Part shown: piece by piece, positions 1 through 40,190 of the stretch | Position numbering within the stretch: the stretch's first letter is position 1 | Layout of the letters: each line of letters starts with the position of its first letter | From: Escherichia coli | GTDB lineage: Bacteria > Pseudomonadota > Gammaproteobacteria > Enterobacterales > Enterobacteriaceae | Assembly (NCBI RefSeq): GCF_003334335.1 | Contig: NZ_QOWQ01000036.1 | DNA length: 45,604 bases | Strand: one strand, 5' to 3' | The notes under the pieces: model-generated | The model's input: the letters and a program-made list of their open reading frames with translations, nothing else | Told to the model about the DNA's origin: nothing | The model's database searches: none | Position numbers and translations under genes: made by a program

Positions 1-71
1 GGTGATGACGGGATCGAACCGCCGACCCCCTCCTTGTAAGGGAGGTGCTCTCCCAGCTGAGCTAATCACCC
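1..71 (-). tRNA. valZ: tRNA-Val (anticodon UAC), 3' end cut by window edge
   Basis: Reverse complement matches the tRNA-Val(UAC) gene; anticodon loop CTTACAA visible; last 5 nt incl. CCA lie outside the window. Gene name from position in cluster (memory). Confidence 0.85.
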
Positions 72-220
72 GATACTGCGCTGGATACTACAAACTACTT
101 CCACCGAACCCACCGTCATTAGTGGTGGGTCGTGCAGGATGACTCGCTTCGCTCGCCCTACGGGCCGTTGCTGACGCAACGTTATCCTACACGCTTAACA
201 TCTGTCTTCGATGTTAAAAC

Positions 221-296
221 TGGTGGGTCGTGCAGGATTCGAACCTGCGACCAATTGATTAAAAGTCAACTGCTCTACCAACTGAGCTAACGACCC
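221..296 (-). tRNA. lysW: tRNA-Lys (anticodon UUU)
   Basis: 76-nt reverse-complement match to tRNA-Lys(UUU) with encoded CCA; anticodon loop CTTTTAA. Confidence 0.9.
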
Positions 297-300
297 GAAG

Positions 301-376
301 TGGTGGGTGATGACGGGATCGAACCGCCGACCCCCTCCTTGTAAGGGAGGTGCTCTCCCAGCTGAGCTAATCACCC
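301..376 (-). tRNA. valT: tRNA-Val (anticodon UAC)
   Basis: 76-nt reverse-complement match to tRNA-Val(UAC), identical to the copy at 1-71. Confidence 0.9.
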
Positions 377-511
377 GATACTACGCTGGATACTACAACT
401 AACTATGTTAGTGGTGGGTCGTGCAGGATGACTCGACTTCGTCTCGCCCTTCGGGCCGTTGCTCATGCAACGTTATCCTTCACGTTTTACTACCGCTTCC
501 ACCTTAGCGAT

Positions 512-587
512 TGGTGGGTCGTGCAGGATTCGAACCTGCGACCAATTGATTAAAAGTCAACTGCTCTACCAACTGAGCTAACGACCC
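512..587 (-). tRNA. lysT: tRNA-Lys (anticodon UUU)
   Basis: 76-nt sequence identical to the copy at 221-296; first tRNA after cpoB. Confidence 0.9.
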
Positions 588-5295: not shown

Positions 5296-6389
<1,094 letters not shown>

Positions 6390-9686: not shown

Positions 9687-10300
9687 GACTCCTTGCTCAT
9701 CGCATGAAGACTCCGAGAGTGAACCCCGTTAGAAAGGGTCACACGCATGCCCCAATAGAAATTTGTTTGAACACTTTCATCATACCATGTGAATGCACAC
9801 AAAAACGGCGTAAAGAAAGGTTGCAAACATGTTAATAAAAACTCAAATTGATCCCACGTATATATTACGCCGCAAAATCCTTACAATAAACAGGTTTTTG
9901 TTGAAGCAAATTTGCATTTTTCGACGGTGATCAATTTATAGCTAAATTACCGCCTTTCAGCCAATTTGATCGAGAACAATTTATCTCTTTTTGATGCCCA
10001 TTTCCAAGACTTATACATTGATAAATATCAATTCCTACAAATTATGTTAATCATGTTTCAATAAGGTAACTTTAGTGACATTTATGTTTAAAATGTGTGA
10101 GTTATAAGGCTGAAATTAGTTTCGGTTGGCAATTAAAGATAAAAAGAGACGAAGCAAAAACAGCACGGTTGACCTTAATTCTTTTTTTGGTCACTGGCTA
10201 ATACGACGCAGAGTTTCAGGATTACTAATAAAGGCATAAATCCACCCCGCCAATATTAACATTTAGTTAACTTATAATTATATTATAATTAACTCACCCA
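9687..10300 (-). promoter_or_regulatory. cydA upstream control region (long AT-rich leader/promoter zone)
   Basis: ~600 bp AT-rich non-coding DNA upstream of cydA with TTGAT-containing and TGTTAA-type motifs; cydAB is known to be controlled by ArcA/FNR/H-NS. Individual sites not mapped. Confidence 0.5.
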
Positions 10301-18210: not shown

Positions 18211-18380
18211 CCGTAGGCCTGATAAGACACGTTAACCGTCACATCAGGCATCGCTTGTCGGATGCGGCGCTAGCGCCTTATCCGACCTACATTGGTGGTC
18301 CCGTAGGCCTGATAAGACGCGTCAGCGTCGCATCAGGCTTCAATTGCCGGAGAAGGCGATAATGCCTTATCCGGTCTACA
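18211..18380. repeat. REP/BIME cluster in the sucB-sucC intergenic region
   Basis: Several inverted copies of the gcctgatgcgacgc / gccttatccggcctac REP motif. Confidence 0.8.
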
Positions 18381-22613: not shown

Positions 22614-22733
22614 CGCCTGATGCGCTGCGCTTATCAGGCCTACGGGTAATGACTTGTAGGCCGGATAAGGCGTTCACGCCGCATCCGGCACTGGTTGCCT
22701 GATGCGACGCTTGCGCGTCTTATCAGGCCTACG
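22614..22733. repeat. REP cluster between sdhB and sucA
   Basis: Three REP-consensus copies in alternating orientation ending 2 nt before the sdhB stop. Confidence 0.8.
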
Positions 22734-40080: not shown

Positions 40081-40190
40081 TGCCTGATGCGACGCTTGAC
40101 GCGTCTTATCAGGCCTACGTATTTCCTGCAATTTATTGAATTTGCACAAATTTGTAGGCTGGATAAGGCGTTCACGCCGCATCCGGCATC
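40081..40190. repeat. REP pair between dtpD and phr
   Basis: Two inverted REP-consensus copies (gcctgatgcgacgc... / ...gccgcatccggc). Confidence 0.8.

Follow-up and report, generated by a model that had tools for sequence, protein, structure and literature searches.

Short-form RtT repeats with a host-matched 3' end in the tRNA-Lys spacers of the Escherichia coli lysT operon

Why do spacers of a tRNA operon carry the 3' end of a tRNA that lacks the rest of the molecule? The question is raised by a stretch of Escherichia coli DNA of 45,604 nt (contig NZ_QOWQ01000036.1 of assembly GCF_003334335.1; hereafter the window), which starts within the lysT tRNA operon on the minus strand. Read in the RNA sense, the order is tRNA-Lys, a spacer of 135 nt (spacer B, 511 to 377), tRNA-Val, 4 nt, tRNA-Lys, a spacer of 149 nt (spacer A, 220 to 72) and tRNA-Val. 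An earlier note, made from the sequence alone, had described a mimic of the tRNA-Lys 3' end next to a small hairpin in both long spacers. The 17-mer in question, TGGTGGGTCGTGCAGGA, indeed occurs exactly at 123-139, 221-237, 412-428 and 512-528 (expected number: 0, from 100 dinucleotide-preserving shuffles). The copies at 221-237 and 512-528 are the 3' ends, including the CCA, of genuine tRNA-Lys(UUU) genes, and those at 123-139 and 412-428 lie in the spacers. The identity is in fact one base longer than noted, i.e. 18 nt (ATCCTGCACGACCCACCA in the RNA sense, 412-429 and 123-140), and at the base beyond it the spacers have C and the tRNA has A.

Identity of the spacer modules

Each of the two long spacers almost certainly contains one short-form copy of the RtT repeat (Rfam family RF00391), a module of 72-74 nt in the 3' trailer of tRNA-Lys. 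What the spacers have in common is thus more than the mimic and hairpin recorded earlier: the whole block (123-193 and 412-484) is shared, and it recurs in the lysY-lysZ and lysZ-lysQ spacers just beyond the window. The GC-rich hairpins themselves, GCCCTACGGGC (155-165) and GCCCTTCGGGC (446-456), are present, but they have a 4-bp stem with a 3-nt loop and no tetraloop, and they do not follow the mimic: as the genes are on the minus strand, the hairpin lies 5' of it in the transcribed sense.

The Rfam model of RtT RNA matches both spacers above its gathering threshold of 45 bits, with 58.8 bits at 412-580 and 54.9 bits at 123-289. These coordinates are misleading, since about 55 nt of the 130-nt model have no counterpart in the spacer copies and cmscan bridges the gap by laying the 5' third of the model on tRNA-Lys across a 44-nt insertion, which contributes part of the score. 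To avoid the overlap with the tRNA a second model, R1, was built from 48 distinct short-form copies from many Enterobacterales. R1 scores copy A with 87.6 bits and copy B, one of its training sequences, with 98.1 bits. Among copies outside its training set, it detects the four canonical ones at tyrT-tyrV (33-34 bits, with E about 4e-6), the one after proK (54 bits), the terminal ones after lysQ and lysV (30 bits) and three in the serV-argVYZQ operon of strain K-12 (79-95 bits). The latter lie at 352-426, 625-701 and 1040-1116 of the fetched MG1655 locus, end in the last 18-19 nt of tRNA-Arg and are deletion, i.e. short, forms, too; with Rfam two of them reach 29-31 bits, below the threshold of 45, and the copy at 352-426 gives no match at E values up to 0.1. 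The similarity of the core is unlikely to be confined to the bases fixed by the search pattern used for the cross-species set, since sequence beyond the pattern contributes to the scores of both R1 and the Rfam model.

The core common to the tyrT copies and the spacer copies reads AACGUUGC-NNNN-GCAACG, GCCCGNAGGGC, a variable hairpin and GAGU[A/C]AUCC. Like the RtT RNA (rttR) of the 178-bp tyrT-tyrV repeats, the spacer copies have a closing helix formed with the copied host 3' end and pass the Rfam threshold; both also lie directly downstream of, and co-oriented with, a tRNA in one transcription unit. Unlike the tyrT copies, they lack the internal arm of the full-length architecture (model positions of about 25-70, GAGAACC..GGUUCGA..GAGCGNAGCGAGA), the 5' strand of the closing helix P1 directly adjoining helix P2, and their host is tRNA-Lys, not tRNA-Tyr. 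A pseudo-tRNA was considered and rejected: ARAGORN finds no gene in the spacers, and no Rfam tRNA match is obtained in 72-220 or 377-511 at E values up to 10. The same holds for an internal promoter or terminator, as no promoter-like site was found and the sole terminator-like call is P2 on the non-transcribed strand.

In MG1655 Rfam places an RtT match behind every tRNA-Lys (five in the lysT operon and one after lysV), four at tyrT-tyrV, the defining locus of the family (133-137 bits), and one after proK (101 bits). Together with the arg-operon copies, E. coli K-12 carries at least 14 RtT copies. The first 720 nt of the window match every complete RefSeq E. coli genome (99.7% identity to K-12 strains), and spacers A and B are base-for-base identical to those of MG1655.

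The RtT family, its link to tRNA operons and the repeat of the tRNA end have been catalogued, and as the copies described here pass the Rfam threshold, they are already known. The five-tRNA host-matching rule, the short-form architecture, and the empty allele and its frequency, all described below, were not found stated in the accessible literature, older work excepted. The practical consequence concerns annotation. The Rfam matches overrun tRNA-Lys, RefSeq annotates 'RtT sRNA' after lysQ in the same operon and not in the lysT-operon spacers, and the arg-operon copies stay below threshold, i.e. short forms are mis-delimited or missed. In Klebsiella four 'RtT RNA' features of 166-170 nt with nearby locus tags have been annotated (PMC4147364), lengths that match those of the stretched Rfam matches in the window. 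In general the import of the copies is low, as the repeat has been catalogued, no bacterial genome is better studied and many strains lack the copies.

Fold and host matching

Folding of the spacers in the RNA sense, proposed in the earlier note, places the mimic in a helix in both cases. The module consists of four helices (Table 1): a closing helix P1 encloses three small hairpins, P2, P3 and P4. The first 10 nt of the mimic are the 3' strand of P1 and reproduce the tRNA T stem and the adjoining acceptor pairs; its last 8 nt (ACCCACCA) are unpaired. P1 is formed by CGUG[A/U]AGGAU with AUCCUGCACG, P2 by CGUUGC-NNNN-GCAACG and P3 by GCCC-GNA-GGGC, and P4 is short and variable.

RNAalifold recovered the same four helices independently from an alignment of 48 sequences. 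On this structure 94.2% of the paired cells are compatible with pairing, compared to 88.5% in shuffles, of which 0 of 500 reach the observed value, and if the partners are slid by 1-3 columns the fraction falls to 28-50%. Covariation is found in P4, where pair 46-55 is GC in 31 copies, AU in 6, CG in 4 and UA in 1, and in P1, where at pair 6-69 UA stands in Lys copies and GC in Arg copies, two of the latter (Pseudescherichia and Serratia) having AU instead, with a C to U change in the mimic accompanied by a G to A change in the 5' strand. In P3 the stem bases are near-invariant in the 48 copies and only the middle base of the GNA loop varies (A, U or C). G-U cells on the transcribed strand outnumber A-C cells (11 versus 5), a weak lean towards a fold at the RNA level. 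Between loci the element has an identity of 0.87-0.92 and the 5' flank one of 0.60-0.62 (for copy B, means of 0.92 and 0.62), values from a cross-species set whose retrieval pattern prescribes 19 core bases and thereby inflates the apparent conservation. Because of the covariation and the conserved element set against variable flanks we take the RtT fold to be under selection, as judged from the aligned sequences. A different arrangement, the pairing of CCCGAA with an upstream UUCG in the Rfam consensus, was rejected in favour of the local P3 hairpin, as the partner is missing in short forms and the UUCG of long forms, inspected by eye, does not change when the middle base of GNA varies.

The cross-species comparison that the earlier note called for yields RtT copies with a host-matched 3' end across many Enterobacterales. 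A scan with the core pattern, using one genome per species, gave 149 matches, about one third of which are chance matches in GC-rich genomes, e.g. Streptomyces, and were set aside. All 73 copies that have an upstream tRNA inside the locus end in the 3' end of that very tRNA, over 18-19 nt in 70 of them. The other 17 family-like matches either run off the end of a contig or deviate at 1-3 positions of the mimic, and none is demonstrably free of a tRNA. The hosts are tRNA-Lys(UUU), tRNA-Arg(ACG), tRNA-Pro(CGG), tRNA-Pro(UGG) and tRNA-Tyr(GUA), and the taxa include Escherichia, Citrobacter, Enterobacter, Pluralibacter, Phytobacter, Cedecea, Erwinia, Brenneria, Hafnia, Yersinia, Rosenbergiella, Serratia, Mangrovibacter, Shimwellia and Gilliamella. 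The junction is always located within the T loop (..GAGU[A/C]|AUCC..). The closing helix is formed with the copied host end for Lys (CGUGAAGGAU/AUCCUGCACG), Tyr (GGGGAAGGAU/AUCCUUCCCC) and Arg (CAGGGAGGAU/AUCCUCCCGG). Its 5' strand tracks the host, with 10 of 10 pairs for Tyr, 9-10 for Lys, 6-7 for Pro and, for Arg, 8 contiguous pairs, a mismatch and 1 more pair. P1 thereby resembles a tRNA acceptor/T-stem minihelix in that it consists of the 5 bp of the host T stem, 2 bp contributed by bases of the T loop and 0-3 pairs of the acceptor stem, and is continued by a single strand that ends in ACCA; it differs in that the T loop is absent and three hairpins are enclosed in its place, the acceptor stem is partial, and most Lys and Arg copies have one internal A-G mismatch.

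Long forms (Tyr, Pro and terminal Lys) contain an extra internal copy of the 5' strand of the host T stem plus UUCG. In two Yersinia species an exact 22-nt copy of tRNA-Arg positions 37-58 precedes the core, and this element reads as the 3' half of a tRNA with a putative insert of about 77 nt in the T loop. In Citrobacter youngae adjacent tRNA-Lys genes have the acceptor variants CGACCC and CGCCCC, each followed by a mimic of its own variant, the variable base being located in the unpaired tail; a variant tRNA of Cedecea is likewise matched by its mimic. Such own-variant mimics would fit gene conversion, fresh duplication or selection for tRNA identity.

Some further observations concern these loci. 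The acceptor variant GGGGCG...CGCCCC is present in some tRNA-Lys(UUU) genes of Citrobacter and Cedecea (1847-2148, 298-373 and 9751-9826 of the fetched loci), and Citrobacter arrays have it beside the common GGGUCG...CGACCC form. Citrobacter werkmanii has three tRNA-Lys genes 30-44 nt apart with no RtT element between them. One tRNA-Tyr-linked copy of Shimwellia pseudoproteus has about 150 extra nt between the region of the P1 5' strand and the core, with the insert located about 258 nt upstream of the core match. Intergenic repeats with the layout of the RtT core are found in Alloalcanivorax/Alcanivorax, Pseudomonas subflava and Aliiglaciecola (e.g. 5936-6112 of one locus). They consist of a hairpin, ACGUCGC-NNNN-GCGACG (P2, with U-A compensated to C-G), GGCCCGNAGGGU (P3) and a hairpin at the P4 site; those of Alcanivorax form tandem arrays with a period of 76 nt. 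In the fetched loci no upstream tRNA with a matching end accompanies these repeats, and two of the loci, scanned against Rfam, gave no match; P2 and P3 were preset by the search pattern, so that any homology with RtT is putative.

Alleles, RNA ends and competing explanations

At the DNA level the unit is polymorphic. The full spacer B is found in 3592 of 5426 complete E. coli genomes and the full spacer A in at most 4147; in the remaining genomes, as far as examples were listed, only the mimic and the part downstream of it match (query 83-135), and this match lies on annotated tRNA-Lys. In E. coli SCPM-O-B-8794, the one genome in which the boundary was determined, the lysT-valT spacer is reduced to the 35 nt after the mimic (window 377-411), i.e. 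exactly 100 nt from the tRNA end to the end of the mimic are missing and the boundary coincides with the 18-nt repeat. The counterpart of the 72-122 spacer in this strain is 51 nt long and also without the element. Filled and empty forms can even be neighbours, the 62-nt argY-argZ spacer of the K-12 arg operon being the 'empty' form of two filled spacers of 198 nt on either hand. The unit is absent in about one third of E. coli genomes, and any function is therefore non-essential: the RtT unit in the tRNA-Lys spacers is dispensable. Since Citrobacter, Enterobacter, Phytobacter and Pluralibacter have the element in their Lys-to-Val spacer, deletion is the simplest reading of the empty E. coli alleles.

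The view of the earlier note that the mimics are remnants of the duplications that built the array is supported in part. The 3' end of the tRNA recurs in the mimic as a direct repeat, a unit of 98-100 nt is present or absent among E. coli genomes, and in copies that are last in their unit (proK, lysQ, lysV and tyrV) the repeat runs past the CCA through the terminator, over up to 45-60 nt, which is a signature of a presumed partial tandem duplication. What separates the repeats, however, is no local leftover but the conserved RtT core, which also stands behind tRNA-Tyr, tRNA-Arg(ACG) and tRNA-Pro and has a fold maintained by compensatory changes.

At the RNA level, Agrawal, Mohanty and Kushner (PMC4176162) have described the operon as a single transcript, about 1100 nt long, which RNase P divides at the 5' ends of the tRNAs in the 3' to 5' direction. 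The tRNA-Lys precursors retain the long spacers as 3' trailers, for the removal of which RNase II and PNPase, followed by RNase T, have been proposed; RNase E cleaves within the spacers only if RNase P is inactive (PMC4176162). The authors mention neither RtT nor the mimic. Published Term-seq 3' ends (Adams et al., supplement of PMC7815308) lie at 780632/780634 (lysT CCA +3/+5), 780842 (valT +2), 781146 (valZ +3) and 781447/781448 (lysZ +3/+4). The suggestion that the mimics act as processing signals thus finds no support for these spacers, the separation being effected by RNase P and the Term-seq lists, which cover three conditions, containing no discrete end at the spacer mimics (PMC4176162; PMC7815308). 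Literature searches found no known small RNA from these spacers.

The situation differs at the tyrT locus. An 'orphan' Term-seq 3' end at 1287359 on the minus strand, listed as upstream of tyrV and tpr (PMC7815308, supplement), falls in the tyrT-tyrV spacer, 4 nt beyond the CCA of its tRNA-Tyr mimic, an offset as at real tRNAs, and is probably the 3' end of an RtT-type RNA from this spacer; the annotated rttR RNA has its 3' end precisely at the CCA of a tRNA-Tyr mimic. As seen at this locus, a mimic can define a tRNA-like 3' end, and by analogy with the tyrT copies a role as processing signal is possible for the Lys copies, too. The idea that RNase P cuts at the 5' edge of P1, as in a minihelix, was rejected, since the 5' end of rttR lies 7 nt after tyrV and not at P1, and no such site is reported for the lysT operon (PMC4176162).

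How can a fold be selected and the unit that forms it be dispensable? We favour, with moderate confidence, a two-level account in which units are lost and gained as DNA and act as structured trailers as RNA; the copies in the tRNA-Lys spacers are then most likely dispensable, duplication-prone trailer modules and no obligatory processing signal. At the DNA level, recombination or slippage between the tRNA end and the mimic would delete the unit, unequal exchange would multiply units of tRNA plus module, and gene conversion would keep the mimic identical to its own tRNA. At the RNA level, the spacer would be released by a cut 3-5 nt downstream of the genuine CCA of tRNA-Lys, and 3' exonucleases would trim the freed module and stall at the P1 helix and the CCA-type tail as they do at a tRNA. 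Trimming of this kind would yield RtT RNA at the tyrT copies, the short tRNA-Lys copies being without an observed stable product. The general behaviour of RNase II and RNase T is the basis for expecting a stall at a stable helix with a CCA-type tail.

Several points weigh against this account. About one third of the complete E. coli genomes do without the unit. No Term-seq 3' end lies at the mimic ends, 780729 and 781016, in any of the three conditions (PMC7815308, supplement), and the study that probed these spacers describes no discrete spacer species (PMC4176162); because no such ends or species are reported, the stall of the exonucleases has to be deduced from the tyrT copies and the general properties of RNase II and RNase T. 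The invariant helices P2 and P3 are mute on pairing, neither supporting nor refuting it; their invariance suggests that the sequence itself is constrained, and this could instead reflect a constraint at the DNA level or by protein binding. The conservation is inflated by the retrieval pattern, as mentioned above, and the choice between gene conversion and selection for tail identity rests on two informative loci.

A selected fold in a dispensable unit also fits a self-propagating element, and this is the main rival of the two-level account: a selfish miniature DNA element would target tRNA genes with a GTTCGAATC T loop and duplicate the last 18-19 nt of its host like the att scar of an integrase, and the hairpins would serve a DNA transaction. 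T-loop-crossover integrases are said to leave a repeat from the T loop to the CCA (reportedly described by Williams in 2002), and attL/attR duplications share with RtT this 18-19-nt repeat and an inter-repeat segment that is exactly present or absent. An 18-nt direct repeat bounds the spacer unit, an exact empty allele exists in at least one genome, filled and empty spacers coexist in one operon, the 3' ends of five different tRNAs are all attached to one core at a junction within the T loop, and both the long forms, with the host T-stem 5' strand and TTCG, and the Yersinia copy, a tRNA 3' half with a T-loop insert, look like products of such an event. Yet we regard a selfish element as unlikely. 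Unlike att-bounded elements, RtT has only about 80-160 nt between the repeats (82 nt in the spacer unit), no recombinase or other mobile-element content and no linked integrase or transposase gene, and one core is found at five tRNA species. A distant blastn search with the element in 50,697 phage records returned no genuine copies, and an origin from phages or plasmids was rejected, as the matches comprise only contigs of Salmonella chromosomes deposited as phage, a single 7-kb record devoid of annotation and plasmid records, most of them large or Mb-scale and some chromosome-sized (the few smaller ones were not inspected). Moreover, positions such as the Lys-to-Val spacer are common to several genera, which fits old vertical inheritance with losses, and the excess of G-U over A-C cells leans weakly towards RNA. 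REP/BIME and ERIC sequences are likewise multi-copy, hairpin-forming, conserved across genera and polymorphic in presence, but RtT is linked to and co-oriented with tRNA genes (90 of 90 sampled copies stand behind a tRNA or are cut by the contig end) and has a host-specific end. The dispensability in about one third of E. coli, the lack of RNA ends mapping to the unit and the decay of some terminal mimics (1-3 mismatches) would also suit a neutral scar, i.e. leftovers of unequal crossing-over between tandem tRNA genes that are selected neither as RNA nor as DNA. This is very unlikely, as the core is recognisable from Escherichia to Yersinia, Hafnia, Erwinia and Gilliamella, with flanks of the same spacer that cannot be aligned, recurs at unlinked tRNA loci and keeps P4 and P1 by compensatory changes, a covariation by which the scar is already disfavoured.

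Two further explanations assign a function to the RNA. If the module were truly a processing signal acting in cis, its tRNA-like helix and ACCA tail would be the target of a nuclease whose cut there sets the order in which the precursor matures. The rttR 3' end and the Term-seq end at CCA +4 of the tyrT locus point in this direction, as does P1 with its copy of the host T stem and one to three acceptor pairs, but we give the idea little credence, given that RNase P at the tRNA 5' ends suffices, RNase E acts in the spacers only when RNase P is inactive, no 3' end is found at the Lys mimics, and the same spacer is without the unit in some strains and in entire species. Lalaouna et al. are said to have described in 2015 regulatory RNAs cut from tRNA spacers, i.e. 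3'ETS-leuZ (from a 3' external transcribed spacer) and the internal transcribed spacer of metZWV, and the RtT spacers, too, are transcribed spacers or trailers of a tRNA operon that could survive as separate RNAs, though neither a pairing site for small RNAs nor a link to Hfq nor a stable species is known from them. A trans-acting RNA or tRNA decoy would titrate a tRNA-binding factor, e.g. in the stringent response, as suggested for RtT RNA. The unpaired tail follows the sequence of the host tRNA although the fold does not need it, and an effect of RtT on the amino-acid-starvation response is reported by papers citing Bosl and Kersten 1991, as are RtT-family RNAs on Northern blots in Actinobacillus (PMC4986893). 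For the short copies, however, no stable product is known, and the module has neither anticodon arm nor T loop and is called by neither ARAGORN nor the tRNA model, which leaves the decoy very improbable indeed.

A more far-reaching scenario, which we consider doubtful, goes as follows: RtT may be a tRNA-gene-specific insertion module, about 75 nt inserted into the T loop of an incomplete tRNA copy, that spread among the tRNA-Lys, -Tyr, -Arg and -Pro loci of Enterobacterales and Orbaceae, is matched to its host by gene conversion and gives an RNA that serves as tRNA-end decoy with a selected fold, and that perhaps shares ancestry with the 76-nt tandem repeats of Alcanivorax and Pseudomonas, which have the same P2-P3-P4 layout and no link to tRNA. 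Published annotation also places Rfam RtT matches in Pasteurellaceae. The host-matching rule and the exact empty allele offer a handle on how tRNA arrays grow and shrink, and the natural E. coli alleles with and without the unit provide a ready-made test of the function of RtT RNA, a question since 1991.

Other features of the operon and the window

The coordinates of the modules, their helices and the surrounding tRNA genes are compiled in Table 1. On one side the operon is flanked by cpoB, pal and tolB, and past the window edge follow lysY, lysZ, lysQ and nadA.

Table 1. Features of the lysT operon at the start of the window (positions in the window; modules first, then tRNA genes and remaining spacer parts)
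Feature	Position	Strand	Basis
Short-form RtT copy B	412..484	-	RF00391 58.8 bits; R1 98.1; single-sequence fold z = -3.6; consensus fold
Copy B, helix P1	475-484/420-429	-	
Copy B, helix P2 (loop 463-466)	467-472/457-462	-	
Copy B, helix P3 (loop 450-452)	453-456/446-449	-	
Copy B, P4	435-443	-	
Copy B, junction GAGUC	430-434	-	
Copy B, tail ACCCACCA	412-419	-	
Helix P3 of copy B with loop, GCCC-GAA-GGGC, the GC hairpin of the earlier note	446..456	-	short-form alignment
Mimic, copy B, 18 nt (420-429, 3' strand of P1; 412-419, unpaired CCA-ended tail)	412..429	-	exact match, fold
Short-form RtT copy A	123..193	-	RF00391 54.9 bits; R1 87.6; fold
Copy A, helix P1, fully paired via a U-G	184-193/131-140	-	
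Copy A, helix P2	176-181/166-171	-	
Copy A, helix P3	162-165/155-158	-	
Copy A, P4	146-152	-	
Copy A, tail	123-130	-	
Mimic, copy A, 18 nt	123..140	-	exact match
tRNA-Lys(UUU), lysT position; its last 18 nt are the source of the mimic	512..587	-	ARAGORN; Rfam tRNA 79.2 bits
tRNA-Val(UAC), valT position	301..376	-	ARAGORN
tRNA-Lys(UUU), lysW position	221..296	-	ARAGORN
tRNA-Val(UAC), valZ position, cut by window edge	1..71	-	Rfam tRNA, 3'-truncated
Spacer B, 5' part, 27 nt, AUCGCUAAGGUGGAAGCGGUAGUAAAA; differs between genomes	485..511	-	
Spacer B, 35 nt from mimic to tRNA-Val	377..411	-	
Spacer A, 5' part, 27 nt, with its own hairpin UUAACAUC...GAUGUUAA	194..220	-	fold
Spacer A, 51 nt from mimic to next tRNA-Val	72..122	-	

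Outside the modules, the 20 nt 5' of both tRNA-Val genes, GUAGUAUCCAGCG[U/C]AGUAUC (72-91 and 377-396, minus strand), are near-identical in spacers A and B, and the same leader stands 5' of tRNA-Val in Citrobacter and Pluralibacter loci, i.e. it is conserved. The short spacer between tRNA-Val and the second tRNA-Lys (297-300) reads CUUC in the window and CC in MG1655, so that the window does not come from K-12 itself. In spacer A only, the mimic tail ACCCACC can pair with GGUGGGU 9 nt downstream (108-129, minus strand), and the minimum-energy fold of the whole spacer adopts this 7-bp hairpin; the downstream segment with GGUGGGU differs in strain SCPM-O-B-8794. Further above-threshold Rfam matches in the window are unrelated to RtT: the CpoB/ybgF thermometer at 1514-1652 on the minus strand (142 bits) and, at 18216-18287 (minus), 22659-22729 (plus) and 40111-40153 (minus), two naRNA4 matches (59.5 and 88.4 bits) and the ES036 small RNA (75 bits).

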